A DNA stretch of 43,844 nt. It comes from an uncultured Candidatus Saccharibacteria bacterium (lineage in GTDB: Bacteria > Patescibacteriota > Minisyncoccia > Phycocordibacterales > UBA9973). This document shows positions 4 to 40,393 of the stretch, piece after piece. The translations under genes were made by a program, and so were the position numbers. Within the stretch, counting starts at the first letter, position 1, and each line of letters starts with the position of its first letter. The notes beneath the pieces were generated by a model. That model ran no database searches. It saw nothing but the letters and a program-made list of their open reading frames with translations, and was not told the DNA's origin. The DNA lies in assembly GCA_964605995.1 (NCBI GenBank), contig CAZSEN010000001.1, positions 1-43,844 of the forward strand, given 5' to 3'.

Positions 4-162
4 ATGTCACAAGATCGATTATTCAAACTTGCGTGCGGAACCTGCAAAAGAGTCAACTACTGGAGCAGTAAAAACAAGAAACTCGTCACTAAAAAGATCG
101 AGCTGAAAAAGTTTTGCAAATGGTGTAAGGCGCAGAAGCCTCATAAAGAGGCGAAAAAGTAA
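4..162 (+). CDS. rpmG: 50S ribosomal protein L33
   Basis: ATG at 4 and TAA at 160-162 give 52 aa: MSQDRLFKLACGTCKRVNYWSSKNKKLVTKKIELKKFCKWCKAQKPHKEAKK. Its size, basic composition and CxxC...CxxC zinc-ribbon pattern are typical of L33. It is under 60 aa, so it is absent from the ORF track. Confidence 0.85.
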   Translation: MSQDRLFKLACGTCKRVNYWSSKNKKLVTKKIELKKFCKWCKAQKPHKEAKK

Positions 163-163
163 A
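114..163 (+). repeat. Direct repeat copy 1 (attL-like), the functional 3' end of rpmG
   Basis: ttgcaaatggtgTaaggcgcagaagcctcataaagaggcgaaAaaGtaaa matches 38617-38666 at 47/50 positions. Confidence 0.75.
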
Positions 164-7002: not shown

Positions 7003-8445
7003 GTGAAGAAAAAGAAACCCATCAACGAAAAACCGAATGTATCTATCCCTGGACTCCGGATACGGTGTAAAAAATGCAATACATGGGTTTCCAAATGCGC
7101 GGAGACTGGCGCCGATTTGAAAGAGTGTCCGCATAAGGAGCAACTGACCTATCTCGCCGTAATCCATCTTCCCGGCACGAAACACGGACGCGTAGTGCGT
7201 GAACTGGGTAGTGATCTCTCAACAGCCGTTACCAAACTCGCTGCGCTAAAGGAGCAGGTCCGACATGGCAATGTGCCGAAGCAAAAAGGGAAGTCACAAG
7301 TCCACAATCCTCCCGTCTTACGACAACTATCTCCGGTTGTTGTTTCCCCTGTTGCTGAAAATCAGATTACGCTTGTCACTGCCATGAGCAAGTACATCAG
7401 TTTTTTGAATAATGTCGATACGCCAAAACATTTGCATCGCGAGCGCTCCAAGCACTACAAGGACGATATTACACGGGCGTTCAAATACTTCTGCGGTTGC
7501 CTGAAGAAAGCAGGATACGCGGTTGATAGTTATCCGCTTTCAAGTCTTTCAGATACCGAAGTGGGTTTCTTTTATCAATACCTCATCGACGAGAAAAATT
7601 CTTCTCCTTTCACCTACAATCGCTACCTCACCTACTTCACGTCGTTCCTGGCGTGGGCGCAGAAGAAAGGATATTCAGTCAAGAATGTTTTTGAGGATGT
7701 ACCGCGCCTCGACACCGAACCTGATTCAAAGTCCATAAGTCGTGAAAATTATGAGCAGATGCTTTCGCTTGTGACGCATGAGAACGGTTTCCAGCATTTT
7801 CCGGGAAAGAAAAAAGAAGCCCGCAATGTTTACAGGGATTTTTTAGTTACTGGCTATCGCATCGGTTTGATGACTGGACGCAGAACTGAGGAAGTAATAA
7901 GTCTTCGTTTTTCCGACATTGATGACGAGGCCATGACTATTCGTGTTGAGGACTTCAAACCGAACCGCATTCTGAATCGGCAAGGTGCAAAGAAGAAGTT
8001 TATCTACGTTCCAATTACCAAACAACTTCGCACCTTGATCGATACGCTCGGTTATGAGGAACACAAAGGAACAGATCGCCATTTGCTTGCGCCTGAAATT
8101 GTGACAAATCGGGTTGCTAACATCAGCGATGCGCTCTCCCGCAGTTTTTCCCATTACTACAAGCAACTGAACACCGGCGAAGTGTTAACCTGGAAATCCT
8201 TACGCAAAACATATCTCACGCGCCTGAAAATTTTCCTGCAACAGGGTTCAAGCAAGATCGACGTGAAAGACATTTCCAATCATTCAGGGGATGCGGTGCT
8301 CGACAAACACTACTTCGACAAACGACTCATCGCTGCCGCGCTTGCTGAATCGGGTTTTGAAGTTTTCCCATCGTGGGAAGAGGAGTTGGTGCGGGTTCGG
8401 TCTTTGTCAAAACAAAAATCGAACGAAAAAGAAATCGGACTTTGA
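7003..8445 (+). CDS. Tyrosine recombinase / integrase (large, CTn/IME type)
   Basis: 480 aa. GLMTGRRTEEVISLRFSDI (catalytic Arg box), LRKTYLTRL, and HSGDAVLDKHY (His...Tyr) at the C-terminus. Confidence 0.9.
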   Translation: MKKKKPINEKPNVSIPGLRIRCKKCNTWVSKCAETGADLKECPHKEQLTYLAVIHLPGTKHGRVVRELGSDLSTAVTKLAALKEQVRHGNVPKQKGKSQVHNPPVLRQLSPVVVSPVAENQITLVTAMSKYISFLNNVDTPKHLHRERSKHYKDDITRAFKYFCGCLKKAGYAVDSYPLSSLSDTEVGFFYQYLIDEKNSSPFTYNRYLTYFTSFLAWAQKKGYSVKNVFEDVPRLDTEPDSKSISRENYEQMLSLVTHENGFQHFPGKKKEARNVYRDFLVTGYRIGLMTGRRTEEVISLRFSDIDDEAMTIRVEDFKPNRILNRQGAKKKFIYVPITKQLRTLIDTLGYEEHKGTDRHLLAPEIVTNRVANISDALSRSFSHYYKQLNTGEVLTWKSLRKTYLTRLKIFLQQGSSKIDVKDISNHSGDAVLDKHYFDKRLIAAALAESGFEVFPSWEEELVRVRSLSKQKSNEKEIGL

Positions 8446-8540
8446 CCGTTTCCGCACAAACCGTCCGCACAAACTCTCGTCCATGTGCGGACGCAGCGCT
8501 TCTTACCTGACCATCCACGCTATCTTTATCCAACAAAAAA

Positions 8541-8576
8541 ACGGCGCGTTTTCCCTCTGAAAACGCGCCGTTTTTG
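8541..8576 (+). terminator. Terminator-like hairpin downstream of the integrase
   Basis: acggcgcgtttt-ccctctg-aaaacgcgccgt followed by tttt. Confidence 0.5.
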
Positions 8577-8583
8577 ACTTTTG

Positions 8584-8638
8584 TACCCGAGACGGGACTT
8601 GAACCCGTACGGCCGTGAGGCCAAGGGATTTTAAGTCC
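8584..8638 (-). other. 3' half of a tRNA-Leu(UAA)-like sequence (not a complete tRNA)
   Basis: The minus strand reads gga-cttaaaa-tccct, then a long variable arm ggcc-tcac-ggcc, T-arm acggg-ttcaagt-cccgt and acceptor ctcgggt-a. No D-arm or 5' acceptor sequence lies upstream. Confidence 0.7.
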
Positions 8639-8748
8639 AACGGGATCGCAACAAAACGGCTCAAAAAGCCTGAAACGCGGGTTTTGTCACCGGCAAAAAC
8701 AGGGAAGGTCGTTCACTTCCGCACTTGGGTTTTCCGCACTTGGTTAAA

Positions 8749-9489
8749 TCAAACGGTAACTAGGGAATTATAATCTAACACGATGTGGTAGACTTCAATG
8801 TCCGCTTTTCCTTTAGAACGACCGTGCGTACTTTGATAAACAAATTCGAATGCGTTAACATATGGTGAAATATCGCAGCTTAACTTATGCTTTGCCAAAG
8901 GCTCTTTTGTATTGAGAAGATCTCCATGCCTTGTCAGCAAATCTTGATACGATACAAAAGAAGATGAAATGTCCATTTGATCGCTTGGCGTTTCGGCTTC
9001 TAAAAACGAGATCATCCCAGCGACCGATACATCCGAATTGGGATAGTATTGGCCGTCTAAAAACCGCACTACCCCCTCAGTTACATATTTATCCGCCAAT
9101 GCAGCATTCATTCGCTTGCACTCGAATACATAGTAAATACTACCGTCCAAAAGTGGAGAGCATACTTTAATATCTAAAATCCCAATTTTTATATTTTGAT
9201 AAAATTCCTCTGCTCCTGAAATGAACAGATAATTCCCGAGATTAAATCGTACCCGGTTTGGATTAATATACTTAGCTACTAAATCATTCCTTAAATAATC
9301 TTCCAGTTCCAATCTTTTTGTCGCCCTACCTCTCACCTTACTGGTCAGCGATTTTAAACTATTTCTTGAGTATGGTGTTCCACTTTGAATTTGCGAATAT
9401 GCATAAACAATAAGATTCACACACGAGTCGAACGTAGTATCGCGTTGTGAACCAAGATTGTTTGCTACAAAATCATCAACACCGGTCAT
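8749..9489 (-). CDS. PD-(D/E)xK nuclease-like protein
   Basis: GILDIKV...(17 aa)...FECKR fits D...ExK. Its start overlaps the stop of the upstream methyltransferase gene by 4 nt. Confidence 0.55.
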   Translation of the reverse strand: MTGVDDFVANNLGSQRDTTFDSCVNLIVYAYSQIQSGTPYSRNSLKSLTSKVRGRATKRLELEDYLRNDLVAKYINPNRVRFNLGNYLFISGAEEFYQNIKIGILDIKVCSPLLDGSIYYVFECKRMNAALADKYVTEGVVRFLDGQYYPNSDVSVAGMISFLEAETPSDQMDISSSFVSYQDLLTRHGDLLNTKEPLAKHKLSCDISPYVNAFEFVYQSTHGRSKGKADIEVYHIVLDYNSLVTV

Positions 9490-12400
9490 GCGGAAGTCAC
9501 TTGAGATTTCTTTAATTCTGCCTTCAGGATGATATCATTAATCTCCATCACATCTAGATGTGCAACTGCTTTGTGCCACAATTTCTTTTCATTTGGTTTG
9601 ATGATATAGAACGATGTGTTGGTGAAGCCCCTGACATCCTGTTGGAAATATAAGTCCTTACATGCTTTATAAATCCCCAAATCTCCAAGCAGAACATTCC
9701 AATCCTCATTGGATGTGCGACTTGTAACTATTGTTTCGCATGGATTGGTTTGCATGTGAAAATTAATCCTAACGAAATAGTCATTTAGGATAATTTCCGG
9801 TCGCAAACATTTTTTTGCGTGTTTAAAGCGCTCATTAAAAAAAGAACAAAATATATTGGCATAAGCCTGTAATTGCTTTTCATCCTTAGCGATTTCTGGC
9901 CGAAAAGCTCTAAACGCATCTGAATCAGAATCGCGTAGTAGAACAGGTAACGAAACGTCGAATGCGAAATTAACTAAGTCCATTTCTTGTTCTGTTAACT
10001 TATACGCTTGATTGACTAGTTTGTCGATGGACTTCCGATCAGTCAAATCAGTACCATCGTCCAATGTCTCGTCTCGATTTGTAATCTCCAGTGCAAGCTT
10101 TCCAATTTTTGGCTCATTGGCAAATGGGAAATTAAAAAATTCTGCGAAGTGAACTCTCGTTCTCTCAATACCAGCAGAGGAACTACTGTTCAATAAAAAA
10201 TAAGTAAACAATTTAGAATTTAAGACTCCCGAAAGCGTTGAAAGGAATGACCGCGAATCATCAGAATTATTTGAAGTTGGAACAACTGAACACACAGTTG
10301 AACTAAAGCAAATCTTCTTGTCATTGAACGCTGAAACTGCCCCAAAAAAATGCTCCCCACCTTTGGGCTCAAGAACCAATCCTTTCTTTATCAAAAGCTT
10401 GTTTCCAGCAAAGAATTTCTCATCCGGTACGTATCCGACTTTTGAATTCTCAATGTCTTGAAGAGCGAGTTCTTTTTTCCACTTTTTGCCAGGCGCAACA
10501 ATATATGGTCGAAATTCTTTCTCTGCATCCAAATAGTCGTAACTATGAAATTTACTGGAATCTATTTTTTTCTTCCCATCCTTCAGTTTTAACCCGCCAT
10601 TGGATAAATACCCCAATTCTTCAAAACACTCCTGTATTGTTTGAAACTGACTCTTTAGCCTTTGAAGGAAGTGAATATCTAAAGCACTTCCGTGAACAAG
10701 AACTTTCCATAGCCAGTCATCGCCGCCATATTCCTCAATGAAATACTCTTGTTTAATTCTTTTTACATCATGCTTCTCAACAACAATTGTTTTATAGAAA
10801 AGAAAGAACTTGTTCGGCTTAACGGTAATATGTTGTATCACATTATTGCCGGTGTACTCATGAGTTGATGCAGGGATATACGTAATGATGGCGGCTGGCT
10901 GCCTCGCTTCATCAAAGATGTGGTTGCCACCCCTAATTTTATTATTTACGGGAGAAAGCTCTACAACTTGCTTGACGTGAAATTTCCGTAAAAAGTAATT
11001 TCGAAAAGCTTTAGAGGAGCTTCCAGTATTATATAAAACTTTGCTAGAGACAATAAAGCTGCACTTTGGAACTTTACCATTCGATCTAAAATCGCTCGTG
11101 CGTACCAAAAATGCTTGACAAATTTCTTTGTCTCCAATTTGCAGAGGAACAGCACCTTCGTCTATATCGTTACCCTCTAAAGCATTTCGATTTTCGATAT
11201 ACGAGATATAAAGTGAACGGTCAACATTTCCCCAAGGAGGATTCCCAACAATGAAATCTAAGTTTTTAATCTTTGAATTAAATGGGTGCTCTAAATTGAA
11301 AAAGTCCGCATCCAATCCCCCAAAGAAATTTTCATCCTTCAATTTTTGAAAGCGGAAATTTTCTATCTCCGCAGGTTGCTTGTAATCTAGGATTGTAACG
11401 TAAAGCGAGAAAATTGATATATCAATTGCATCGGGATCAATGTCGACGCCATAGATATTACTTTTAATCAGACTCCATAACTTGGCATCCGATATTTTAG
11501 TTTTTCCAGTAACATGTAACTCTTTCTCAATGATCTTCCTTAATGTTTCAACAAGGAAAATTCCTGAACCGCAGGCAGGGTCAAGTACGCGACAATTTGA
11601 ATCGTCCTTTCCGGAATTCTCCAGGAAAGGTGTAACTGTTTGCGACAAAACATAGTCGACAAGATAAGGAGGAGTATAATATGCTTTTATCTCCTTCTGT
11701 TTTGAGAGCTGTACATTATCATTCTCAAATTCATTTCCAATAAAGTTCTCATAGATACTGCTAATCAGTTCCACCGGAATTATCTCGAAGTCATATACAT
11801 CAAATAAAGAGGGCTGAACCAAATAGCTCTTATACTTCGATCCGGACCCAGCTTTGAAGAACTGAGCGCAGTTAAATAAATACGAGAGTATTTCTAGATG
11901 AGAGTCATTAACTTCCTTTTCTTCATCATACTCGAGCAGACGTCCCTCATATTCCTTAAGAGGGAACATGTCGCCATTATATTTCGTGTTTAAGTACTTA
12001 AAAAATTTATACAGCAATTTCTTATTCCCGATGATTTCGCGGAATGCAGATCGCCTTTCTTCTTTAGTTTCTCCTAATACAATCTCCTGATCGCTAAAAG
12101 TGACATTGCGATCAATCAAATAACTAATAAAAAGGAGTCTTCCAATTAACCTATTTGCAACCCGGGGCGATAACTTTAAGCCATCTTTGGCAACAAGGAT
12201 TCTTCGCGCATCAGTGATATTATTTAAAAGGTAAGTATCGATGTGCTTTTTTGGCTTACCTAAATGATTAAGCGAATTACCCCGGCGAATGTTAACAAAT
12301 GAAAACTCTTTAAATCAATCGAGGTAATTGTCCCCTTTTATGCGCGTCAATCGCTTGGCGCCATCGATAGAAAATTCGCTACCATGATATAAATCAAGGT

Positions 12401-12510
12401 TATCCTGACGATTAATGAATACAACTTGGGCGAGGCCAAAATTAATTATGCGCTTGTGTATCAACTCCTCCTCTGCAGCAGAAGGATTATCAAAAAATAA
12501 AATGAATGAT

Positions 12511-13525
12511 TAGAGTTTATACCGATTAAGATGTTAAGAGTGGCCTGTTGAAACAAGGAGAGTAAGCCACTGATAACCCGTTCTTTGAAATTATAGTTTG
12601 GTGGCATGAAATTAGACTATAAAAATCTGAAGAAAAAATCGAGCTTGTTAAAGTCGGCGACCGGTTTGAGTTTAAAAGAGTTTGATTTTCTGAAACCGTC
12701 CTTCGAAAAAAGTTGGCATAAGTATATGAGCCAATACACCTTTGAAGGGCTCAAGCGACAACGGGCGAGAACGATTCGAGTAAACACAACATTTAAATGT
12801 ACTGAGGACATGATGATATTTATCCTTTACGATTATCGTCATAACCCGACTCAGGAATTTATGGGACTTCATTTTGATCTTCAACAATCGAAGGTGGCAA
12901 TGTGGCTAAAAGTGCTGGAACCCATTCTTGAGAAGAGTTTAAAACAAATGGGGCTTGTTCCGGCCAGAGAAAGTGAGTCATTGAATGATCGCCTGATCGA
13001 TTCTGTAACGGTTCTCCTGGATGGAAGCGAGCGCCCTGTCAATCGGCCAAAGTATGATCAGAAGGAATTCTACAGCGGAAAAAAAAGAAACATACGGTAA
13101 AAAACAATCTTATAACAGACATGAGCGGAGAAATACTTTATTTGAGTCCAACCTATGGCGGTTGCGTACATGACAAAAAAATATGTGATCTTGAGAATCT
13201 TTCACTTTCCAAAAACGTTTCCCTACTTGTGGATTTGGGATATTTAGGGTTCCGCAGCGAAAATGCACATGTTATATTGCCTTTTAAACAGAAGAAAAAC
13301 CAAGAATTGGATGCGGATAAACTAGCTTACAACAAATGGCAGGCGCATATAAGGGTGCGAATCGAACATACAATTGCAAGTATAAAAATCTTCAGAAAAG
13401 TGAAAGAAACATTCCGTGGCAGATTATACAGCAGGGAAGACACGGTAATGCTCGTGGCTTGTGCACTGCATAATTTGAAGCAGAAAGTAAAATTCACGTA
13501 ATGAACTTAATCGGTATAAACTCTA
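12511..13525 (+). mobile_element. Insertion sequence (IS5/Harbinger-like, DDE_Tnp_4-type transposase)
   Basis: Perfect 20-bp terminal inverted repeats: tagagtttataccgattaag at 12511-12530 and its reverse complement at 13506-13525. The outermost TA may be a target duplication. 1015 bp in total, interrupting the methyltransferase gene. Confidence 0.8.
12606..13501 (+). CDS. DDE transposase in two frames (12606-13100 and 13121-13501)
   Basis: A -1 shift on the A8G run (13079-13087) gives YSGKKKKHTVKNNLITDMSGEILYLSPTYGGCVHDKK, the contiguous motif expected in DDE_Tnp_4 transposases. Confidence 0.75.
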
Positions 13526-14093
13526 TTGATTAAAAGGTTTTGGGTGTCCTGATCTGTCCGCTCTGTCGTTATAAATACAGTAGAACGCCGAGGGCTTAAT
13601 TACTTCTTGAAGAATACGGCTCACACGGTATGGGAATTTATGAACCCATTCCTCCGATCTGTCAAGAAAGAACAAACCATTTTCTTTCTTCAGACCTAAT
13701 TTTTTGTACAACTGAGCTAAGCGATCCACTGGTTTACCAAATTATCTGATTTACTCCAACCCCGAAGGGGCCAATTTTATATAGTTTCAACAACGAAACT
13801 TTCATAAGTTCCTGTACTAGAGCATATTATTAATTTTCAAACATGTGCATGATTGCGTCCCGAGGCTCATAAGTACAAATTTCAATAGAAAAAAAGACTT
13901 TTTTGGGAAAGACTAATATTTTTAGTCAAACTGCCTAATATTATTAGCAAAACGAACCGCACAAGCATTAATAATGCTTGGAGAAAGACAATTGGACTAT
14001 AACCAATCAAACTTACTGGATTTCAAGGTGATATCTTGACGACCTGTTCTTTATCTTTGACTCTTTGCTTAAATTCTTTACCGAACTGTTTAT

Positions 14094-15647
14094 ATGGCCT
14101 TTTCTCTTAACCAAATACCGCAAGCGGACATTCTCGACAAAGTGGTGCAAACTGTTGTGGCGATTAATGACTCTATCACTTTGGAATCAGAAATTGCAGA
14201 CCATGTTGGCATCTCATCAAAACAGGTTGAGCGGTATTTGCATGCAGCAGAAATCTTGGGTTTCATTTCAGGAGACTACAAGCAGCCAGGATTAACTGCA
14301 TTTGGAAATGAACTCATTAATGGATTCGTTCAGGATCAGCAAAGTACGTTGAGATCAGCCGTTCTTCGGAATAACTTATTTGCGAAAGTCTTGGAAGAAT
14401 TCAAGAAGAATCCTGATGGCTTAACGGAAAACGAAATTCGAGAATTTATTTTTAATAATTCGCAAGCCGAGGCTCGCACTTCGATTCCTAGAAGAATCAA
14501 AACTGTTCTGTCTTGGCTAAGTTCTGTCGAATTGATTATAGAGGAGAATGAGAAATACAAATTTAATGATCAATTAGAAGACGAACAATCGGAAAAATCA
14601 CCGCAAGATGGAATCTATCCTGTCAACTATTCCAAAGAAGTTGACATAAAAGAAGAAAGTATTTCTGTTTTCGAACTTCGCCGTAAAATTGAGAATGACA
14701 AAATTATCATGAACCCCGACTTTCAGAGACACCTAGTCTGGAAGCCACATCAAAAAAGTCAGTTTATTGAATCCATAATATTGAACGTGCCGCTGCCGCC
14801 ATTTTACTTAAAAAAGGAATTAAACGGAAAATTAATAATCATTGATGGGCTTCAGCGTACATCCACCTTGGAGGCATTTCTTAATCAAGAGGGTGATGAT
14901 TATTTCCCGCTGGAAGGCTTAATGGCACTTCCTCGAATGAATGGAAAATATTTTCATCAATTGGATGAAGACATTCGAACTAGGATTGAAGATAAAAATC
15001 TTCTCATTTATGTTCTTCAACCCACGGTTCCCATGGTGGTTGTTTATGACATTTTTAATCGGATTAATACTGGTGGAACTCAGTTAGAACGTCAAGAAAT
15101 CAGAAACTGCATTTTCATTGGGGAATCAACGCGTCTAATTAAGCGACTAGCTGATGATCCCGATTTTAAGCAAGCAATTGATTATGGAATTGCTCCAACA
15201 AGAATGAAAGATCGGGAGGCCGTGCTGCGCTGCATATCATTTCAAATTTGCGATTATGGTACTGAGTACAATAATTCTTTAGACGATTTCCTTGAGAAGT
15301 CAATGAGGAAAATAAATCGGACACCGCTAGAAGAAATCGAAAAATTAGAGTTAGAGTTTAAGCGCGTAATGAAGATGACCTTTGACTTCTTCGGATACAA
15401 TAACTTTCGATTACCTACGGATTATAGTAGGGGAAGAATAAATATTGCCGTGATGGAATCGGTATACAATTTTTTTGCTAACAGTGACCCACTAGTCTTG
15501 GTCAAAAATAAGAAAGCAATTAAAGAAAACTTTAGTACGTTGCTTGATGATGAAGAATATTATGACGCTGTTAGGTATTCTACGGGCAGCAAGTCTAAAG
15601 TAGATGCGAGATTCAGCATTGCGAAAGCCACATTGGGAAATTTTTAG
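14094..15647 (+). CDS. DUF262 (GmrSD N-terminal/ParB-like nuclease superfamily) protein with N-terminal wHTH-like region
   Basis: NPDFQRHLVWKPHQKSQFIESIILNVPLPPFYL...IIIDGLQRTSTLEAF is the classic DUF262 signature. Confidence 0.85.
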   Translation: MAFSLNQIPQADILDKVVQTVVAINDSITLESEIADHVGISSKQVERYLHAAEILGFISGDYKQPGLTAFGNELINGFVQDQQSTLRSAVLRNNLFAKVLEEFKKNPDGLTENEIREFIFNNSQAEARTSIPRRIKTVLSWLSSVELIIEENEKYKFNDQLEDEQSEKSPQDGIYPVNYSKEVDIKEESISVFELRRKIENDKIIMNPDFQRHLVWKPHQKSQFIESIILNVPLPPFYLKKELNGKLIIIDGLQRTSTLEAFLNQEGDDYFPLEGLMALPRMNGKYFHQLDEDIRTRIEDKNLLIYVLQPTVPMVVVYDIFNRINTGGTQLERQEIRNCIFIGESTRLIKRLADDPDFKQAIDYGIAPTRMKDREAVLRCISFQICDYGTEYNNSLDDFLEKSMRKINRTPLEEIEKLELEFKRVMKMTFDFFGYNNFRLPTDYSRGRINIAVMESVYNFFANSDPLVLVKNKKAIKENFSTLLDDEEYYDAVRYSTGSKSKVDARFSIAKATLGNF

Positions 15648-15650
15648 AAA

Positions 15651-16922
15651 ATGCTCCGACAGCTAACCTTAAAAAACTTTAAACTCTTTAAAGAGGCAAC
15701 TCCAATTCCATTGGCGAATCTCAATTTGTTAACGGGTATCAACGGAAGAGGGAAATCAACTGTTCTTCAGTCATTGTTGTTAATGCGACAATCACCGGAA
15801 TATGATCGAACGACAAGTAAGATCATTTTTAATGGAGATGATATTAGGATGGGAAACTTTCAGGACGTAAAAAATATTGCTTCATCCCCAAGTGAGCCTA
15901 TTGAATTAACATTTCATTACGACGACTTTCACATCCTTTATCAAATCTTTCAGAATAGTAATGATCCTGTGGTTGGCGATATCGGAAATATCTACTTAAC
16001 TGGTAAGGTAGAAGGAGCCGACATAGCTCTAAGGCTCATCAATAATGAGGGAATGTTCAATTATTCGGTTAACCAGGAAGAAATTGACGCAATGTCCATG
16101 ATCTATCTTCATGATCTGTTTATTCATGATGCTGATGTCGAAGGCGTCTTAGGAGACGGGATTGGTCCACACATCAAGGGTGCATTAAACTTTAATCGAG
16201 TTCACTATGTTGCTGCGGATAGAATTGGCCCAAAATTATTTTATAATGAAAAAAGTTTGAAAGATTTTTATTCTGTCGGTCCTTTTGGGGAGGAGACGGT
16301 AAATATCCTACATCACAAAGCCTCTGATCTCTTAGAAGAAGAATTTATTGAAAACATAGCCCGGCTTTTTCATTTAGACCCAGAAGAAATTGGGCGAGAT
16401 GTGGAGCTTCAAACTACATTCTGGCTCTCTAAATTATTTACCAGCGTAAAGTACCGAATCAAAAGGGTTGAGGATGCAAACCTACTGACCTTTAGCATTA
16501 GCCCGGAAGGAACTTTTGATTATTACAAACCAACTAATGTCGGATATGGATTTAGCTATGTTTTGCCAATTATTGTAACGGGATTGATTGCAAAAAGGGG
16601 AGATCTTTTTCTTGTCGAAAATCCGGAAGCACATCTGCATCCGCATGCACAATCGGTTCTTGCAAAGTTTTTGACTCTAGTTAGTTTAAGAGGTGTTCAG
16701 GTTATTATCGAATCCCACAGTGAGCATGTTCTAAATGGGTTAAGAATTCCGGTTTACGACCGAATAATTCCGAATACTCATTTGAACGTTTTATATTTTG
16801 ATCGTAGTCAAGCAGGGTATTTTACAAAAATTGATGTGGCAGAAGATGGAGGAATTGAGAATTGGCCGCCTGATTTCTTCGACCAATCAACAAAAGACCT
16901 GAACTATTTATTTGGAATTTGA
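15651..16922 (+). CDS. AAA-family ATPase with C-terminal DUF3696-like region
   Basis: Walker A at LLTGINGRGKST; LFLVENPEAHLHPHAQ...IIESHSEHVLNG; C-terminal ENWPPDFFDQ. Starts 4 nt after the DUF262 gene. Confidence 0.85.
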   Translation: MLRQLTLKNFKLFKEATPIPLANLNLLTGINGRGKSTVLQSLLLMRQSPEYDRTTSKIIFNGDDIRMGNFQDVKNIASSPSEPIELTFHYDDFHILYQIFQNSNDPVVGDIGNIYLTGKVEGADIALRLINNEGMFNYSVNQEEIDAMSMIYLHDLFIHDADVEGVLGDGIGPHIKGALNFNRVHYVAADRIGPKLFYNEKSLKDFYSVGPFGEETVNILHHKASDLLEEEFIENIARLFHLDPEEIGRDVELQTTFWLSKLFTSVKYRIKRVEDANLLTFSISPEGTFDYYKPTNVGYGFSYVLPIIVTGLIAKRGDLFLVENPEAHLHPHAQSVLAKFLTLVSLRGVQVIIESHSEHVLNGLRIPVYDRIIPNTHLNVLYFDRSQAGYFTKIDVAEDGGIENWPPDFFDQSTKDLNYLFGI

Positions 16923-17727
16923 CAGTATGGAAGTGCTTGTTAACGAAGACTCATTGCATGGCCAATATGCAAATCATGAAGTGATAGAGAAACTTCGCAG
17001 TTTTCTTCGTCTAATAAAGAAGGTCAACCAACTTGAACGACCTCCACGACTTTTACGAAGCGATAAGCTTTTTGAAGCTCAAGCCATAGGCGGAGTTCAT
17101 CTGGGAACAACACTAAATGCTCGTAAAGATTTGTTGGAAACGTTTTTAAATAATTTCAAAAATGCAATACGATGGGAGAATGAAAAAACGCATCAAGATC
17201 AGTCTGCCTATGAGCACGAAAATATCGATTATGTTACACGGTCAATAGCTGAGATTACGGAAAGGCAATTAGTGGGACCCAATATGAATAGGCACTTATT
17301 GAATTTCCCCGATTCCAAATTTGGAACCTCATCTAAATTAAGTATTATCAAGGATAAAATTACTACTAGTGATTTAGCGTGTTCGTTCGATGAAGAATCC
17401 TTCGCGGAATGGCTCATTGAAATCGGACTACTAGATCCTAAGAGGAAATATGATGTGGTCAATGAGAAGCGACCACCGATGGATTATCAAACTGTACTTT
17501 ACGACAAAACTAAATTCACATCAATCGGAGTTAGAAACCAGGGAAGAAAAGTTTACTCAAGGATTGGAACAACGGAATTGTGGGTTGTCGATAATCTGCA
17601 TTTCGGTGGGGCAGCACAAATTGAAGTATTTCGGTCAACAACAAAGGAACACTTAGGAACTTCACCTATTGACAGAGTTCAACCTAACGATAAATCCAAG
17701 GTAAAAGGCCGAACACTAGATCAATAA
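16912..17727 (+). CDS. Hypothetical third component of the DUF262/ATPase operon
   Basis: Overlaps the ATPase gene by 11 nt. No recognised motif; the ATG at 16927 is an alternative start. Confidence 0.55.
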   Translation: MEFDSMEVLVNEDSLHGQYANHEVIEKLRSFLRLIKKVNQLERPPRLLRSDKLFEAQAIGGVHLGTTLNARKDLLETFLNNFKNAIRWENEKTHQDQSAYEHENIDYVTRSIAEITERQLVGPNMNRHLLNFPDSKFGTSSKLSIIKDKITTSDLACSFDEESFAEWLIEIGLLDPKRKYDVVNEKRPPMDYQTVLYDKTKFTSIGVRNQGRKVYSRIGTTELWVVDNLHFGGAAQIEVFRSTTKEHLGTSPIDRVQPNDKSKVKGRTLDQ

Positions 17728-22122: not shown

Positions 22123-23556
22123 ATGTTCGACATCCTTATTTCAATTTTCGAATCACTGTTCAAGATACTCTTCGAATTGCTTTCGATGCTGTTTGGTGGC
22201 TCCAAGCCCAAAGGATACCATGCACGATTTGCATCAGAAGGTACGGTGCTCTCGCGATGGAACAAAGGCTTTTCATTGACTGGTCGCAAACAGATCACGG
22301 CGAAAGATTCATTCACTAACTGCATGGTAGTAGGTTCGACAGGTTCAGGAAAGACGCAGAGTACATTGCTGCCATCGCTCTTTGCGATGAAAGGATCATT
22401 TATTATCGCAGATCAAAGCGGAGAAATTTTCAAATCAACTTCGGGATTTCTTCATCAGGAAAAGGAATACAATATCAAGATTCTCAACTTGAGCGATGCG
22501 TTATGTTCTTCGGGATTCAATCCAATGAGCCGCGCAAATACTTCTAATGAAATTCAGAAGCTCGCCTCCATGCTGGTGCGCACCACGCTCTCGGGCGGAA
22601 AGGCATCAGATCCATTCTGGGAGACACAAGCGACAACATTGTTGGTCATCCTCATTTCTATTCTGAAGACGCAACCCGAGCAGTATCAGAATCTGTACAA
22701 TGTTCGCCAACTGCTCAATCAGCTTTCAGAGAAGCCAGAAGAAGGACAAAACAATTCCGTCGATTCTTTATTTGTTCGTTACGCCGATCCCGTGCTTTAC
22801 AATGAATACAAGTCGTTCATTGCGTATGACGACAAGTTGCAGACTTCGATTATTGCTTCTGCTAAGTCCGCGCTGACGATTTTCGCCGATGAGACCGTTG
22901 CCCGGATAACTTCGAAGGATACCCTTGATTTTTCTGAATTCCGCAAACGCCCGACTGCGCTATACCTGCAATGCGGCATTCAGGATATGGCCTATTACAG
23001 TCCACTTTACGCGATTTTCTACGAGCAACTTGCTGCGTATCTCCTTTCTCGGTTTCCTACCGATGAGGAACAAGACATCTTCATTTTTGCCGAAGAATTT
23101 GGTTCCACAAATCGCGTACCCGTGTTTCCGGCATTTTTTGCGAATTGTCGAAAGTATCGCGCCGGAATAATGGCCATCGTTCAGGATTATAACCAGATCG
23201 TGAATATCTACGGGAAAGCGGAAGCGGAGTCCATTCGCACCAATTGCTTTTCCAAAGTGTTCTTTGGCGGCGGCTCACTTGAATCAACAAAGGAGCTTTC
23301 TGAGATACTCGGCAAAACCGAATACAAAACAGAGGAAGGGAGGCGCGACGTGATGCCATTGCTCACGCCGGATAGCATCAGGATGCTGAAGAAGGATCGC
23401 GCTTTGGTTATTTGCGGCAGTCATCCACCGATATTGGCCAATGTCCGCCCTGCATACAAAAGTCTTCGCTATCGCGCGTATATGGCCGTACAACCGCCAA
23501 TAGTTAGGGGCGATGCTCCGCAATCAGTAGCAATCCTGCCATTGGGCAGTAAATAA
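22123..23556 (+). CDS. Type IV secretion coupling protein (TraG/VirD4/MobC-of-CTn type), short form
   Basis: Walker A at VVGSTGSGKTQSTLLPS; Walker B-like DIFIFAEEFGS; later IMAIVQDYNQI. Confidence 0.85.
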   Translation: MFDILISIFESLFKILFELLSMLFGGSKPKGYHARFASEGTVLSRWNKGFSLTGRKQITAKDSFTNCMVVGSTGSGKTQSTLLPSLFAMKGSFIIADQSGEIFKSTSGFLHQEKEYNIKILNLSDALCSSGFNPMSRANTSNEIQKLASMLVRTTLSGGKASDPFWETQATTLLVILISILKTQPEQYQNLYNVRQLLNQLSEKPEEGQNNSVDSLFVRYADPVLYNEYKSFIAYDDKLQTSIIASAKSALTIFADETVARITSKDTLDFSEFRKRPTALYLQCGIQDMAYYSPLYAIFYEQLAAYLLSRFPTDEEQDIFIFAEEFGSTNRVPVFPAFFANCRKYRAGIMAIVQDYNQIVNIYGKAEAESIRTNCFSKVFFGGGSLESTKELSEILGKTEYKTEEGRRDVMPLLTPDSIRMLKKDRALVICGSHPPILANVRPAYKSLRYRAYMAVQPPIVRGDAPQSVAILPLGSK

Positions 23557-23563
23557 AAGAAAT

Positions 23564-24133
23564 GTGGCTACGCGATCTGCACGTCATTCCGGATTGTGGG
23601 AGTATCTCGAGAAGTCGGGCGTGCTGGTCAGTGGGTCGGATGAAGAAATAAAAACGGTACGGCGTGAGTATCGCAAAATATACCTGAAACAGTACAAGCA
23701 ACAGCAGCGCAAACACAAGCCTGAATTTTTGGTGCAGTTATCACGTGATGGCGAATTAACCACAATCACTGCCGCAGCAAAAAAACACCGCATGAGTGTT
23801 ACCGCATTCCTCCGCCTGGCAACACTGTCGTATATCTCTCGCGTGTTTCTCATTCCTGATCGCCAACTTGTCGGAAAACTCGCAGGACTTCTTGAGTCAT
23901 GCCTGAATGAGGTTCGGGCAATGACAAGCGTGAAAACGAAACAGAACTCTTTCCTGTTGGAAGAAAAGTACGATGCCATCGAGCGGCGCATTATCGAACT
24001 TCAATCAGAACTTCAAAAACTTTTCTTTCATCCGGCATTGCTTGAATCGGCAGTCGCTGAAGCGATACGCATCGATCCTACACTTCGGGATCGTCTGCAA
24101 ATAATTCTCTCTCATGCCCATCGTGAAGATTAA
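23564..24133 (+). CDS. Relaxosome accessory protein (MobC/RHH-like)
   Basis: LVQLSRDGELTTITAAAKKHRMSVTAFLRLATL resembles the MobC-type ribbon-helix-helix. Located directly upstream of the relaxase. Confidence 0.55.
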   Translation: MATRSARHSGLWEYLEKSGVLVSGSDEEIKTVRREYRKIYLKQYKQQQRKHKPEFLVQLSRDGELTTITAAAKKHRMSVTAFLRLATLSYISRVFLIPDRQLVGKLAGLLESCLNEVRAMTSVKTKQNSFLLEEKYDAIERRIIELQSELQKLFFHPALLESAVAEAIRIDPTLRDRLQIILSHAHRED

Positions 24134-24923
24134 GACATACAAAAAACCGAAGTTTGATTATCTGCTCCGGTATATGTGCGAGTCGCAGGACCGGCTCTTT
24201 GACGCGCAAGGGAAGAGCTTTAGGATTACGCACAACATCCGAGGGAAAACCATTGAGGACTGGACACGAAGTTTCCGGGAGAATGAAACGTACCGACAGC
24301 GAAGGCGGAAGAATTCGGTGTACCTCAATCACGAGATCATAAGTTTTCATCGTGATAGCACCAAGCATTTATCAATGGAAAAGCTGGAACAACTCGTTAG
24401 GGAATACATACAATTACGAAACCCGAACGGATGCTACGTGGCTGTTCCACATTTTGACCGTTACCACGTGCATGTCCACATCTGTTCGTCTGCTGTTCAA
24501 TACAGGACAGGAAAAAGTATGCGAATGAGCCGAGGGGAATTGGCTGCGCTCAAAAAGAAGATTCAGGATTTCCAGGTGGAGCGGTTTCCGGAATTGGGAA
24601 GGTCGGTGGTGAGGCATGTGAGGAAAGCAAATGGAAAAGCGTCTGAAAGGGAAATGCAGTATGAGCTGCGGACGGGGAAGATGAGCAAGAGGGAAATGGT
24701 GCGACACATTGTGCAAGACTGTCACCGACGATCTTCATCGCAGGAGGAGTTTTTTGCGCTGTTGAAAGAACAGGGAATGGAGACGTATGTGCGGGGAGGG
24801 AAGGTGTATGGGGTGGTGTGCGAGGGGAAGAAATATAGGTTTACCGCAATGGAACTTGATAAAACTGAACAAGAGAATGACATTAGTAGGGTCAAAAAAG
24901 CCGACCGGGAATTGAAGCGGTAG
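24114..24923 (+). CDS. Relaxase / mobilisation nuclease
   Basis: N-terminal MPIVKIKTYKK..., then a histidine triad at HFDRYHVHVHI (HxDxxHxHxH). Confidence 0.85.
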   Translation: MPIVKIKTYKKPKFDYLLRYMCESQDRLFDAQGKSFRITHNIRGKTIEDWTRSFRENETYRQRRRKNSVYLNHEIISFHRDSTKHLSMEKLEQLVREYIQLRNPNGCYVAVPHFDRYHVHVHICSSAVQYRTGKSMRMSRGELAALKKKIQDFQVERFPELGRSVVRHVRKANGKASEREMQYELRTGKMSKREMVRHIVQDCHRRSSSQEEFFALLKEQGMETYVRGGKVYGVVCEGKKYRFTAMELDKTEQENDISRVKKADRELKR

Positions 24924-37192: not shown

Positions 37193-37508
37193 GAGAGAAC
37201 TATACCATCATGTAGTGCGAAAGTCCATTTGAACTATCATATGTAGATCAAGAAAAACTCAAGAAATGAGCTTGACAAAAATTACTTTATCTGCTAGAGT
37301 AATGTTGGTCGTTTATAAAGTTTAATAATACCCACTGTCCCCGAAAGGGGATCAGCCGAAAGGCTCGATGGAACTTTGGGTTTGTATTATAGCGAAGTTT
37401 CGTGAGAGGATGTGAACGCACATCAATATAGAAACCATCGTTCTTTCTATAAAGAAAGGAACGACTAATGCAAACACCCACTGATTCCATCGGTGGGTGT
37501 TTGCATTT

Positions 37509-38474
37509 ATGAAGTTAAACGAAGCAATAACCAAATTCGAAGAATACTACAAACTGAGAGTGAAGGGTGGAACAATCCGGGGCTATGCACTTGACCTGCG
37601 CCAGCTCTGTCTTTTTCTGCGCAATCCGGCCATTGAGAACGTCCAGGACGAGGATATCATATCGTACTTGAACGGAATGCTCGAATGCGGATGGAATCAG
37701 AATGCACTTATGCCTAAAAGTATTGCATTTCGAAAGTTTTTCCAGTATCTGTCACTGAAAGGATATCGCGTTCTTAACTATCAACTCATCCCGATTATTA
37801 AGAAGCATTTCGTACTTCCGCACGTTGCGGAAAAATGGGAGTACGAGAAGATTATGGAATTCTTTTCTGTCGACTCAAAAGAAAAACATATTATTCGTAA
37901 CCGCGCGATAACGAGTCTCATTTATGATTCTGGTGCCCGTGTCGGCGAAATTGTTGCACTCAATATTGAAGACATTGATCTTGAAAATAAGAGGGCGGTG
38001 ATAAAAACCGAAAAATCTCGCGGCAAAGCCCCGGCGCGACAGATATTCTGGGAAGATGAGACAAACGAAAATCTTAAAAAGTGGTTAGCCGTCAGAGCAG
38101 AGATTTCCGGTTATGTCGATTTTCCAGAGCCGGATGCATTGTTCGTTGGTGTGAGATGCTGGCAGATCGGAAAGCGTTTGACCAATAGCGCCGTTGGTAT
38201 CTTCCTTCGTCACGCATCCCGAAAAATTGGCCTCAAGCGCGTTATGAATCCACACTCGTTGAGACACCTCAAAGGCAACGACATGGCAGAAATGAATACT
38301 AACGAGTTCGTAATCTCTCAGATCCTTGGACACTCTCAAGTTTCAAGTTCGAGAATCTATACACTGCTGAAATCTCCCGTTCTGGAAAAAGCGGCACGAC
38401 GCATTAATGAAAACCGACAGATGCTGCGTTCACCTTTCCAATTGACAACCGAATCGAAGGTGGCGAATGGATAG
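37509..38474 (+). CDS. Xer-like tyrosine recombinase / integrase
   Basis: N-terminal SAM-like domain (GYALDLRQLCLFL), DSGARVGEIVALNIEDID (Arg), NPHSLRHLKG (HxxR) and ILGHSQVSSSRIYT (His...Tyr). ATG 37509; the track gives GTG 37497. Confidence 0.85.
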   Translation: MKLNEAITKFEEYYKLRVKGGTIRGYALDLRQLCLFLRNPAIENVQDEDIISYLNGMLECGWNQNALMPKSIAFRKFFQYLSLKGYRVLNYQLIPIIKKHFVLPHVAEKWEYEKIMEFFSVDSKEKHIIRNRAITSLIYDSGARVGEIVALNIEDIDLENKRAVIKTEKSRGKAPARQIFWEDETNENLKKWLAVRAEISGYVDFPEPDALFVGVRCWQIGKRLTNSAVGIFLRHASRKIGLKRVMNPHSLRHLKGNDMAEMNTNEFVISQILGHSQVSSSRIYTLLKSPVLEKAARRINENRQMLRSPFQLTTESKVANG

Positions 38475-38616
38475 TGGTTGGTGTTTCTGCTCGTCATGTG
38501 ATACAATGACCTTGTACTGGATTCTTGACACATCGAACATAAACACTAGCGTTGAGAGATAGTCTCTCAATCCGCCGGTTATCTCAACTATCATTTACGC
38601 TCTGCACCAACAAGTA

Positions 38617-38666
38617 TTGCAAATGGTGCAAGGCGCAGAAGCCTCATAAAGAGGCGAAGAAATAAA
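38617..38666 (+). repeat. Direct repeat copy 2 (attR-like), an orphan rpmG 3' end
   Basis: ttgcaaatggtgCaaggcgcagaagcctcataaagaggcgaaGaaAtaaa. It still encodes ...CKWCKAQKPHKEAKK* but has no 5' part. Confidence 0.75.
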
Positions 38667-38667
38667 A

Positions 38668-38694
38668 GAAAACCCCGAAAGGGGTTTTCTTTTT
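38668..38694 (+). terminator. Rho-independent terminator after the orphan rpmG 3' end
   Basis: gaaaacccc-gaaa-ggggttttc followed by ttttt. Confidence 0.65.
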
Positions 38695-38746
38695 GAGTCA
38701 TGATCATTTTCATAAAGCTCTTTACATTTTAAATTAATATGTTAGT

Positions 38747-39322
38747 ATGTTTCCGGAAATGTTATTTCACAAAAACCATAAACCGATGCAGAAAACCATG
38801 CCGCCGAAAGCTTTCAACGCAAAGCCGATTATTACTGTTATGCTTCAGTCGACTCTTGAATTTGAGGTTGAAGAATTCTTCAATGAAAATTCAGGCAGTT
38901 TTTTTAATAAAATCGATAGGGATATCGCGCATTTCCCCAAGGCCATAGAAAAATCTCCGGCTCTGGAAATTGCAATTATTGATCTGCCTGAAGATGAAAC
39001 AGTGACTGAAGAACAAGTTTTTTACTTTTCCAGGACCAAGCCGTATTACTGGAAAAATAAAGTGAAAATTGACCTTGCTCATGTGGCGCAAATTTGCCAG
39101 ATGAGGGTAATAAAAGGAGAGAGCGATGAGAATGGCGAACTTTCGTTGAAGCCGAATTATCCGAATTTGTTTTTCATGTATGACGAACACCATAATCGTT
39201 ATTTGGTTGAAATTTGGAATGACGGAGCTCACTGGAATTTGAGCATCAGTGTTTATATGCCAGCCGGCAAACTGAAGCCTGGCAGCCGGATTTTCTTCAT
39301 TGAATTAAAAAAGAAGAAATAA
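38747..39322 (+). CDS. Hypothetical protein (191 aa)
   Basis: ORF track; followed by a strong terminator. Confidence 0.5.
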   Translation: MFPEMLFHKNHKPMQKTMPPKAFNAKPIITVMLQSTLEFEVEEFFNENSGSFFNKIDRDIAHFPKAIEKSPALEIAIIDLPEDETVTEEQVFYFSRTKPYYWKNKVKIDLAHVAQICQMRVIKGESDENGELSLKPNYPNLFFMYDEHHNRYLVEIWNDGAHWNLSISVYMPAGKLKPGSRIFFIELKKKK

Positions 39323-39328
39323 ATTTTC

Positions 39329-39361
39329 AAGACCTTTGCGTTTATCGCAAAGGTCTTTTTT
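39329..39361 (+). terminator. Rho-independent terminator
   Basis: aagacctttgcg-tttat-cgcaaaggtctt followed by tttt. Confidence 0.65.
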
Positions 39362-39368
39362 ATGATTG

Positions 39369-39439
39369 CGGGAGGTGGAGGAATCGAACCCCCGACAGCG
39401 GTTTTGGAGACCGCAGTTATGCCATTTAACTAACCTCCC
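39369..39439 (-). tRNA. tRNA-Trp (anticodon CCA)
   Basis: Folded by hand: acceptor gggaggt/acctccc, D-arm gtta-aatggca-taac, anticodon arm gcggt-ctCCAaa-accgc, T-arm ggggg-ttcgatt-cctcc. 71 nt with no encoded CCA. Confidence 0.85.
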
Positions 39440-39468
39440 ATACGGCTCGAGTATACTACAATGCAGCT

Positions 39469-40368
39469 TTATTTCAAAAAATTTTTAACTGAATGATTGA
39501 TTTTTCTCAAATCCTTCTTGTGCTTCGGATTGAACCACTGTATTCTGCTGTCTTTTTTGAACCATGTATCCTGTCGTTTGGCATATCTCCAGATTTCAGT
39601 TGAAAGTTTCTCAACCATCTCTTTCTTCGTGATCTTCTTTTGAAGATAGAGCGCCTCGTATTTATATTCAAGGCCGAGCGCCTCCATCCGTTTCCATGAT
39701 AATCCTTTAATATGAAGCCTCTTTGCTTCTCGAAGCATTCCATCTCTAATTCTTTCAATGAGCCTGGCATTTATTTTTTGTTTAAAAAATTTTTCAGGTA
39801 ATTTCAATCCTATTTGGAGAACTTCATAATTTTTCACAGCCTTTTTTATAGCAGGAACGCTGCCCAGTTTTTTTGCAATTTCAATCGCTCGGATCAAACG
39901 TACTTTATTGTGCCGGTCGATTTCATGAGCTCTTCTTGGATCAATTTTTTTCAATATCTTGAAAAGCTCCCCAGCTGATTTTTTCTCAAGCTGTTTTCGG
40001 AGTTTTTCATTGGGTTTCACTTCCGGATAGGAAATATTGTCGACGACTGCATGGATATAAAACCCGGTACCTCCGCAAAGAATCGGGAGTTTTCCCTTTT
40101 TTAAAATCTCTTGTATTTTTTCATCAGCCAGTTTTTTGAAATCTGAAACATTAAAAATTCGTTTCGGGTCTGCGACATCAAGCAAATGATGGGGAATGCC
40201 GGACATTTCTTTTCTGGTCACTTTGCCAGTTCCAAGATTGAGTCCTTTATAGACTTGTCGCGAGTCGGCAGAAACAACTTCACCTTCGAATTTCTTGGCG
40301 ATTTCTATGGCAAGCCCGCTTTTACCGGTCGCTGTTTGGCCGACTATGGCTATTAGTTTGGGTTTCAT
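39469..40368 (-). CDS. miaA: tRNA dimethylallyltransferase
   Basis: MKPKLIAIVGQTATGKSGLAIEIAK...VSADSRQVYKGLNLGTGK. Start is set at ATG 40368; the longer track ORF runs into the tRNA-Leu gene. Confidence 0.9.
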   Translation of the reverse strand: MKPKLIAIVGQTATGKSGLAIEIAKKFEGEVVSADSRQVYKGLNLGTGKVTRKEMSGIPHHLLDVADPKRIFNVSDFKKLADEKIQEILKKGKLPILCGGTGFYIHAVVDNISYPEVKPNEKLRKQLEKKSAGELFKILKKIDPRRAHEIDRHNKVRLIRAIEIAKKLGSVPAIKKAVKNYEVLQIGLKLPEKFFKQKINARLIERIRDGMLREAKRLHIKGLSWKRMEALGLEYKYEALYLQKKITKKEMVEKLSTEIWRYAKRQDTWFKKDSRIQWFNPKHKKDLRKINHSVKNFLK

Positions 40369-40393
40369 AATTAATGAATAGAGTAGCAGAAAA

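Follow-up and report, generated by a model that had tools for sequence, protein, structure and literature searches.

An apparently unrecombined attP-like site copying a Bacteroidia tRNA-Leu(UAA) end, on an island inserted at rpmG in a Patescibacteria chromosome

The window that we analysed is a complete metagenome-assembled contig of 43,844 bp. It belongs to the chromosome of an ultra-small bacterium of the Patescibacteria (CPR) and carries a 38.5-kb island that is inserted at the 3' end of rpmG; the features of chromosome and island are collected in Table 1. The island is bounded by two direct repeats of 58 nt, which are identical at 53 of 58 positions and share 29 nt without interruption in the centre. 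The last 57 nt of the host rpmG fall within the left repeat; the right repeat comprises only the last 58 nt of the gene and is followed by a terminator and by chromosomal genes. The att copy carried by the element and the end of the CPR host's rpmG thus agree at 53 of 58 positions. A distance of 134 nt separates the right repeat from the end of the gene for Int325, a small tyrosine integrase of Xer-like type. We infer that this enzyme is the recombinase that put the island into rpmG; its own att site appears to have been divided between the two ends of the island, where it now forms the 58-nt repeats. An earlier reading of this DNA, made from the letters alone (the sequence-only reading), had supposed that the island is held elsewhere than at the site of its large integrase, by the other recombinase, and the rpmG repeats beside the small integrase bear this out, with the agent itself being an inference. 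The nearest representative homologue of Int325 is 45% identical, and its named relatives are a mixture of Bacteroidota and Parcubacteria, which leaves its origin undecided.

Table 1. Position, strand and supporting evidence of the features of the island and its chromosomal flanks.
Feature	Position	Strand	Evidence or remark
Host rpmG (ribosomal protein L33, 52 aa)	4..162	+	Pfam PF00471, E = 4e-14
Island attL, left 58-nt direct repeat (rpmG 3' end)	106..163	+	repeat comparison
Two small conserved ORFs, 106 aa and 90 aa	6401..6993	+	directly upstream of Int480
Large tyrosine integrase Int480, 480 aa, intact	7003..8445	+	PF00589
Putative P arm: direct TCCGCACAAAC x2 (8451-8461, 8464-8474) and inverted copy (8484-8493)	8451..8493	.	
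Bidirectional terminator, perfect 17-bp stem	8537..8575	.	between P arm and 3' end of the tRNA piece
Putative attP core, 57-nt copy of tRNA-Leu(UAA) 3' part	8582..8638	-	57/57 vs L042
Putative P' arm: direct TTCCGCACTTGG x2 (8717-8728, 8732-8743)	8717..8743	+	
Low-GC (0.38) cargo abutting P' arm	8749..17727	.	
Transfer module	22123..24923	+	coupling protein and relaxase
Type IV coupling protein	22123-23556	+	
MobP-like relaxase	24114-24923	+	
Small Xer-like tyrosine integrase Int325	37497..38474	+	PF00589 and PF02899; NCBIfam XerC/D-like
Island attR, displaced native rpmG 3' end, terminator after	38609..38666	+	repeat comparison
Patescibacteria chromosome (right flank)	38667..43844	.	ParB, RelA/SpoT, two tRNAs
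tRNA-Trp	39368-39439		in right chromosomal flank
tRNA-Leu(CAA)	40427-40509		in right chromosomal flank

The closest named relatives of the flanking RelA/SpoT protein (64-70% identity) all belong to the Patescibacteria, namely to Paceibacterota, Minisyncoccia, Nomurabacteria and Wolfebacteria. On the other side, the host L33 is 75-85% identical in amino acid sequence to L33 of Patescibacteria contigs that have the synteny from rpmG to ParB-RelA. The native gene order could be read in eight metagenome loci that were anchored on RelA (RelA 63-66% and ParB 61-66% identical to the proteins of the window), where rpmG and tRNA-Trp are followed by tRNA-Leu(CAA), ParB and RelA, without the island. Since both flanks are of CPR type and the native synteny is island-free in relatives, the island represents a true insertion. 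A search for the empty rpmG site by way of the 191-aa ORF beside attR found no relatives in JGI metagenomes, and the NCBI contig with a 74%-identical RelA, being cut inside ParB, does not show an empty site either.

The cargo next to the P' arm encodes a 246-aa ORF, a type IIG restriction-modification enzyme and a broken DDE transposase, and also holds a Menshen NsnA/B/C defence system. Elsewhere the island has a Rep-O-like gene, and it encodes an outer-membrane beta-barrel protein. Neither VirB4 nor any other mating-pore family had a Pfam match among the approximately 45 ORFs scanned, several of which remain unassigned. With a relaxase and a coupling protein but no mating-pore genes found, the island is to be classed as mobilizable (IME-like) and not as self-transmissible; the definition of a self-transmissible ICE is not met. 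The named homologues of the coupling protein are 45-51% identical and derive without exception from Bacteroidota MAGs, one being located on a 306-kb contig. Homologues of 65% and 62% identity lie on contigs that agree in length with those of the large-integrase homologues of the relatives L001 and L007, and these are presumably the same contigs. Genes with T9SS (type IX secretion) sorting domains are present in the relatives L001 and L004.

The larger of the two integrases, Int480, has the complete catalytic set of a tyrosine recombinase (R, K, H/K-x-x-R, H/W, Y), and the corresponding residues R294, K319, R401, H427 and Y437 are invariant in 12 homologues. Its AF2 model consists of an N-terminal domain of three beta-strands and a helix (residues ~10-88), a disordered linker (92-118), and the core-binding and catalytic domains. 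The best structural match in Foldseek is full-length lambda integrase (E = 6e-9 over 417 aligned columns). On the basis of this model, Int480 is predicted to be a lambda-type (heterobivalent) tyrosine integrase with a separate N-terminal arm-binding domain, DNA binding being a prediction only. The family is rare, with 19 homologues among 5.8 billion protein clusters. Int480 had no match in the plasmid collection, and a scan of IMG/VR with the integrase profile yielded only two homologues of ~30% identity with no tRNA nearby; searches of IMG/VR with the exact core, with the core and P' arm pattern and with the P arm and tRNA-end pattern all gave 0 matches. The 106-aa and 90-aa ORFs upstream of the integrase gene keep the same position in six relatives (L001, L002, L004-L007) and match nothing in Pfam, PHROG or NCBIfam. 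A recognisable excisionase (Xis) was not found on the island, and the 90-aa ORF is an unproven candidate for a directionality factor.

Downstream of Int480, whose reading frame (7003-8445) ends at 8445 as given in the sequence-only reading, lies a site composed of repeats, a terminator and a piece of a tRNA gene. Of the nine copies of the motif TCCGCAC in the window, five, the number that had been noted before as flanking the core, fall within 8451-8739 (8451+, 8464+, 8485-, 8718+ and 8733+). The expectation for 293 bp is 0.027 copies (shuffle mean 3.98 per window), and the Poisson probability of at least five is ~1e-10, or ~1.6e-8 when corrected for all 293-bp windows. In the P arm the two copies of TCCGCACAAAC are perfect and 13 bp apart, and the inverted copy extends to the pair CGTCCGCACA/TGTGCGGACG (8462-8471/8484-8493). 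The two copies of TTCCGCACTTGG in the P' arm are likewise perfect, 15 bp apart, and the core motif is common to both arms. The terminator, which is absent from the earlier description, is present in all relatives, and it is similar to the terminator that is native to a Bacteroidia locus (L076) downstream of tRNA-Leu(UAA).

The tRNA piece is of class II type; it extends from the last 3 nt of the anticodon-stem 5' strand through the variable arm, the T arm and the acceptor 3' strand, and also takes in two bases past the discriminator. The sequence-only reading had recognised a mimic of the tRNA-Leu(UAA) 3' half on the minus strand; the mimic is present, but its limits of 8584-8638 have to be extended, the exact block being 8582-8638. 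ARAGORN called no tRNA at 8582-8638, and Rfam gave only a sub-threshold tRNA-Sec match at this piece (16 bits against a gathering score of 47). A D-arm and 5' acceptor had been reported missing, and indeed no tRNA-Leu(UAA) 5' half exists anywhere in the window; nor does a second copy of the core with up to three mismatches occur in its 43.8 kb. The P arm, the single core and the P' arm are therefore joined without an attL/attR pair, which is the layout of an unrecombined site. Judging from this layout, we consider it probable that 8451-8743 is a complete, unrecombined attP of the large integrase, on a two-module island that is docked in rpmG. The unrecombined state had already been proposed, and the single core, the lack of a 5' half and the same motif on both arms speak for it. 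Both the activity of the attP and the pairing of integrase and site are inferred, without experiment or read-level data.

The same succession of integrase, repeats, terminator and tRNA 3' end is seen in every relative with readable downstream DNA. Integrases that are 63-72% identical to Int480 (L002, L004, L005 and L006) are accompanied by TCCGCAC-type repeats: the P arms of L004 and L006 contain two direct copies and one inverted copy, as in the window, that of L005 one direct and one inverted copy, and that of L002 three direct copies. In L007, the integrase of which is 45-46% identical, three copies of TCCTCACC take the place of TCCGCAC, and more distant homologues have tandem repeats of their own with a spacing of 12-14 bp. 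Hence repeats are conserved beside homologous integrases, a point on which the sequence-only reading depended, and their motif changes with the integrase, as expected for arm-type binding sites. This comparison is confined to the P arm, because the k=31 contigs of the relatives end within the tRNA core and their P' arm is unseen; for the same reason the integration state of the close relatives is not readable. In five of them (L002, L004, L005, L006 and L007) the contig stops inside the T arm, the behaviour expected if a second copy of the tRNA 3' end is present in the sample. In L002, L005 and L006 the P arm is separated from the integrase by extra genes.

Homologues beside complete tRNA genes come from assemblies made with larger k. 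In L123/L124 (37%-identical integrase) the order after the integrase is repeats, a full tRNA-Leu(UAA), then tRNA-Gly(GCC), and the two tRNA genes are arranged as they natively are in Bacteroidia; in L009 and L010 (26-29%-identical integrases) it is repeats, terminator and a full tRNA-Met. The acceptor end of the core faces the integrase, so that after integration the rebuilt full gene has to lie beside the integrase. The window shows the unrecombined form instead, with integrase, P arm, 57-nt core and P' arm in succession.

Could the tRNA piece of the window be a relic, either an old attL that has lost its 5' half or an accretion junction, which is carried along as a passenger that no longer recombines? 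Decayed and hybrid sites do occur in this integrase family. L008 has the integrase and P arm of L009, but these are combined with a tRNA-Met fragment, three copies of CGTATACT and a second element, and the locus is a tandem accretion. In L126-L128 an integrase, two copies of CCGCACTCCA and a tRNA-Leu fragment are followed by no matching repeats, and this fragment without a second arm is likely a relic. It may also be held in favour of a fossil or hybrid that low-GC cargo abuts the P' arm of the window. However, the window differs from L008 and L126-L128 in having the same motif on both arms, one core and perfect units: the tandem copies of a single motif are perfect on either side, and the core is identical at 57 of 57 positions to a living tRNA. 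Moreover, one core without a 5' half in the window leaves no second junction of an accreted pair, and the integrase, with all catalytic residues present, and the ORFs upstream of it are intact. A fossil, which the sequence-only reading had kept as an alternative, is thus not excluded, but it is disfavoured by the perfect repeats, the perfect core and the intact integrase, and we regard it as unlikely. Two more specific arrangements can be ruled out for the window, namely a tandem-accretion composite with a chimeric attI, by the single core copy, and a split tRNA or nested insertion by the low-GC block, by the lack of a tRNA-Leu(UAA) 5' half in the window.

We scanned 185,579 species-representative genomes with a pattern of the anticodon loop, T-arm and acceptor sequence, and found it in 112 loci, of which 110 are from Bacteroidota, one is from Neomarinimicrobiota and one from a 'Thalassomonas' MAG; there was no occurrence in Patescibacteria among these 185,579 genomes. 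A full tRNA-Leu(UAA) is contained in 104 of the 112 loci. The matching gene that the sequence-only reading had proposed to look for was found in Bacteroidia MAG.246 (L042), where a full tRNA-Leu(UAA) at 3761-3845, downstream of tRNA-Gly(GCC), has a 57-nt 3' part identical to the core; three further loci differ from the shared block of L042 by one base. Displaced 3' fragments of tRNA-Leu(UAA), left by other elements, are present in 5 of the 112 loci, which indicates that this tRNA end is a commonly used attachment site in Bacteroidota. At these 112 tRNA-Leu(UAA) loci there are no TCCGCAC clusters and no close relatives of Int480, the only match being 28% identical (L078). The tRNA-Leu(CAA) of the window has no more than six consecutive bases in common with the core and is, as stated earlier, not its target. 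A tRNA-Leu(UAA) of related CPR genomes was not encountered within 80 RelA-anchored loci. As far as sequence relationships can tell, the element family and the attP core point to Bacteroidota, whereas the current host is a member of the Patescibacteria, a contrast that had escaped the sequence-only reading. Because the core is a perfect Bacteroidia tRNA-Leu end, the island appears able to dock in two phyla.

Such a union of a Bacteroidota element with Patescibacteria flanks, or the attP join itself, might also be an artefact of assembly, mis-joined over short shared sequences. What speaks for it is that the window, a metagenome-assembled contig, begins 3 nt upstream of rpmG, and that the core acts as a repeat at which five related k=31 assemblies break. 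Against this, an independent assembly of one run (SRR12113420; Logan contig L129, k=31) agrees with window positions 39-12273 with 0 mismatches, and it passes without branching from the left rpmG junction through the integrase, the two arms and the core between them into the cargo. Independent assembly support therefore covers the left junction and the attP, and the right rpmG junction is without it. In addition, the uninterrupted identity of the rpmG copies is only 29 nt and hence shorter than k=31, and both flanks are Patescibacteria-like with conserved native synteny. A Xer-like integrase adjacent to an imperfect 58-nt repeat is the signature of site-specific insertion and not of chimerism, although the right junction lacks an independent check. 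For these reasons we consider a mis-join highly improbable. The unbranched k=31 path further suggests that no abundant sequence in the sample shares 31-mers with the core. From the unbranched contig and the absence of the pattern in Patescibacteria we infer that the tRNA-Leu(UAA) of the host itself differs from the core. Since the present host thus appears to be without a matching tRNA-Leu attB, the attP would be idle.

The two integrase modules belong together in other members of the family as well. They are contiguous in five relatives (L001, L004, L005, L006 and L007), in which the small integrase is directly followed by a 72-aa ORF, the Rep-O-like gene, Dam and further genes up to the large integrase. 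In the window, these genes are found at the island end opposite the small integrase. As the relatives are contiguous across the small-integrase junction, the island of the window has been opened there, and those of the relatives have not. The large integrases are only 45-72% identical across the relatives, yet the gene order is kept; the two-integrase backbone is therefore old, which argues against a recent co-integrate. On this point the sequence-only reading, which had explained the unused attP by a co-integrate or nested composite, is contradicted as far as a recent origin is concerned. A tripartite ICE was also considered for the island, and its definition is not met, the island being contiguous between the rpmG repeats with one attP intact.

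We give very little credence to a different purpose of the site, as an internal landing pad (pseudo-attB) for other elements or cargo, or as a multimer resolution site of a replicating circle: cargo does gather here (the defence block to the right of the P' arm, and the additional genes of L002, L005 and L006), a Rep-O-like gene is available on the island, and tRNA-Leu(UAA) 3' ends are common targets in Bacteroidota (five displaced fragments in 112 loci), but insertion by another tRNA-targeting element would leave a second core copy, of which there is none, the arm repeats fit the neighbouring integrase family and vary along with it, which argues for a dedicated attP, and no plasmid relative of the integrase was found.

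For the unrecombined attP of the large integrase we propose the following mechanism. By analogy with lambda Int, we expect the N-terminal domain of Int480 to bind the TCCGCAC repeats of both arms, and the core-binding and catalytic domains to work within the 57-nt copy of tRNA-Leu(UAA). Crossover with a matching chromosomal tRNA would rebuild the gene from element DNA, which supplies the 3' part and the terminator, beside the integrase, and the displaced native 3' fragment of the tRNA would be left at the far end of the element. After integration, the terminator at 8537-8575 would end transcription of the rebuilt tRNA gene. In the present genome this reaction has not taken place; the island is inserted in rpmG instead, by inference through the Xer-like integrase. 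The element family has both integration modules as a conserved backbone, with a tRNA-Leu module that fits Bacteroidia and an rpmG module that fits the CPR lineage.

That the island moves between the two phyla is an inference from these matches and has not been demonstrated. A still more specific hypothesis is that the element shuttles, as if with two keys, between Bacteroidia and a Paceibacteria-like CPR cell that lives on or next to its partner, with the large integrase acting at tRNA-Leu(UAA) and the small one at rpmG; we hold this to be possible but doubtful. To our knowledge, the partners of most CPR lineages are unknown. The island has been caught in a CPR chromosome with its Bacteroidia key unused, and an intact attP that spells a foreign tRNA offers a concrete, testable lead to a donor or partner. 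If the shuttle hypothesis were true, the idle attP would be a molecular record of the partner of this CPR cell, and we suggest the reading of idle att sites in CPR islands as a general way to trace partners. The island may also serve as a natural model for spare integration modules that widen the host range of mobile elements. Relaxases are rare in Patescibacteria and apparently come from diverse sources (PMC12102498), and the proposal that Paceibacteria received genes from Bacteroidota rests on phylogenetic inference only (PMC12455944).

The closest mechanistic comparison is with phage lambda. Lambda Int has the same architecture of N-terminal, core-binding and catalytic domains that is predicted for Int480, and in the lambda attP, as at the site in the window, arm-type repeats flank a core that is shared with the host site. 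The sequence similarity of the two integrases, however, is marginal (profile E = 0.018) and limited to the catalytic domain, and Int480, unlike lambda Int, has a conserved Cys/His cluster in its N-terminal domain. The sites differ as well: the core shared by lambda and its host is ~15 bp and much shorter than 57 nt, whereas that of Int480 is a 57-nt piece of a tRNA gene, and no sites for Xis or accessory proteins were identified.

Among elements of Bacteroidetes, NBU1 and MTnPi4 are mobilizable and insert at the 3' end of a tRNA-Leu gene (PMC5704250, Table 1). They have a tyrosine integrase, a MobP-type relaxase and the tRNA-Leu 3'-end target in common with the island (IntN1 was not compared), but NBU1 has one integrase and no coupling protein, whereas the island combines two integrases and two att sites with a coupling protein and resides in a Patescibacteria genome. 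The tripartite ICEs (ICE3) of Mesorhizobium, too, have several tyrosine integrases on one element, every one of them with a separate att site and target gene, and there they jointly split and reassemble the element inside one host (PMC5882170). In contrast to ICE3, the island is contiguous, with one att pair recombined and the other intact, and therefore its modules look like alternatives, with targets typical of different phyla. Internal att-like sites beside an integrase in a larger island are known from accretion composites such as ICE-CIME and IME_Sag2603 with its chimeric attI (PMC5704250). Such composites have one core per junction and arms of different origin, whereas the window has one core and the same motif in both arms. 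IMEs of Streptococcus salivarius insert at the 3' end of rpmG (PMC5704250, Table 1). They share with the island the target and the 3'-end copy that keeps L33 intact, but they belong to another phylum, and the kinship of the integrases was not compared. Each single part of the island, a tyrosine integrase, an attP that copies a tRNA, and insertion at the rpmG 3' end, is textbook knowledge. What would be new, to the extent that it can be read from the DNA, is their combination in one mobilizable island, with two complete and independent integration modules and with targets of two phyla.

The attP terminator of the large integrase (window 8537-8575) and the native terminator that follows tRNA-Leu(UAA) in a Bacteroidia MAG (L076, 1395-1430) have the stem GCGCGTTTTC/GAAAACGCGC in common, but their loops are inverted relative to each other. 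The sequence comparison suggests that the DNA proximal to the P arm was once captured from a Bacteroidia chromosome. MAG.246, the Bacteroidia MAG with a full tRNA-Leu(UAA) matching the attP core, also carries, on a separate contig, a longer displaced fragment of the same tRNA (L084, 6944-7200). This fragment lies beside GCGGTGAATA repeats, and its flank is shared with another locus (L035, 3700-3889). The site in L084 is the att site of another family of elements, for which this tRNA-Leu(UAA) is likewise the target.

Members of the integrase family have a conserved cluster of cysteine and histidine residues in their N-terminal domain, namely Cys-22, Cys-25, Cys-32, Cys-42 and His-55 (alignment A1, numbered according to the large integrase of the window). 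This cluster may represent a zinc-binding variant of an arm-binding domain. The motif GGTCAACTGCG(A/G)CAACC is common to three window sites (6340-6386, 17817-17863 and 19314-19360), which lie upstream of the operons of the large integrase and of DUF6908 and of a third operon at 19626. The motif occurs again at 9255-9268 in L005, a close relative of the island, upstream of the homologue of the 106-aa ORF. Possibly it serves as a shared promoter or operator, tying the idle integrase operon to the transfer genes of the island.

Further genes and blocks of the island are located in the table below. The block adjoining the P' arm is poorer in GC than the island backbone (0.45-0.47) and also than the CPR flank (0.41). 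Its genes comprise a complete Menshen defence system (NsnA/NsnB/NsnC), a type IIG restriction-modification enzyme and a DDE transposase that is split between two ORFs. The second low-GC block contains an MvdD/RimK-like ATP-grasp protein and two ORFs without assignment, and could be a small peptide-modification cassette. Patescibacteria are regarded as lacking an outer membrane; the presence of the outer-membrane beta-barrel gene is consistent with arrival of the island from a diderm host.

Positions of further genes and low-GC blocks of the island
Feature	Window position	Assignment or GC	Remark
SymE-like toxin domain	3395-3706	PF08845, under Pfam cut-off	conserved left backbone
Low-GC block	8749-17727	GC 0.38	adjoins P' arm
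Second low-GC block	24938-27538	GC 0.37	minus strand
Outer-membrane beta-barrel protein	28260-29174	PF13568	encoded by the island in a Patescibacteria genome

At the rpmG insertion site, three copies of GTGCAG are found immediately inward of the left rpmG repeat (window 164-254), and GCAGAAACA is found in inverted orientation immediately inward of the right one (window 38475-38608). Both sets are candidates for the arm sites that the small integrase would bind. In related CPR contigs tRNA-Trp follows rpmG within about 20 nt (L201); in the window the rpmG fragment and tRNA-Trp are separated by about 700 bp (38667-39367), which contain an orphan 191-aa ORF. No relatives of this ORF were found in JGI metagenomes. 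The segment may be the leftover of an element that inserted earlier at this rpmG site.

More distant homologues of the large integrase were also found beside tRNA sequences. Three independent assemblies (L126, 3434-3620, as well as L127 and L128) show a 34%-identical integrase, two copies of CCGCACTCCA, a terminator and a 3' fragment of tRNA-Leu(UAA). This site is without a full tRNA and adjoins ClpB, and it is either a further unrecombined site or a relic. In two related genomes (L008, 11330-11700, and L009, 11330-11600) the integrase and the P arm are identical. The P arm is accompanied by a full tRNA-Met in L009, and in L008 by a tRNA-Met fragment that is followed by three copies of CGTATACT and a different element. 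The comparison of L008 with L009 is a clean natural case of tandem accretion at the att site of this integrase family.
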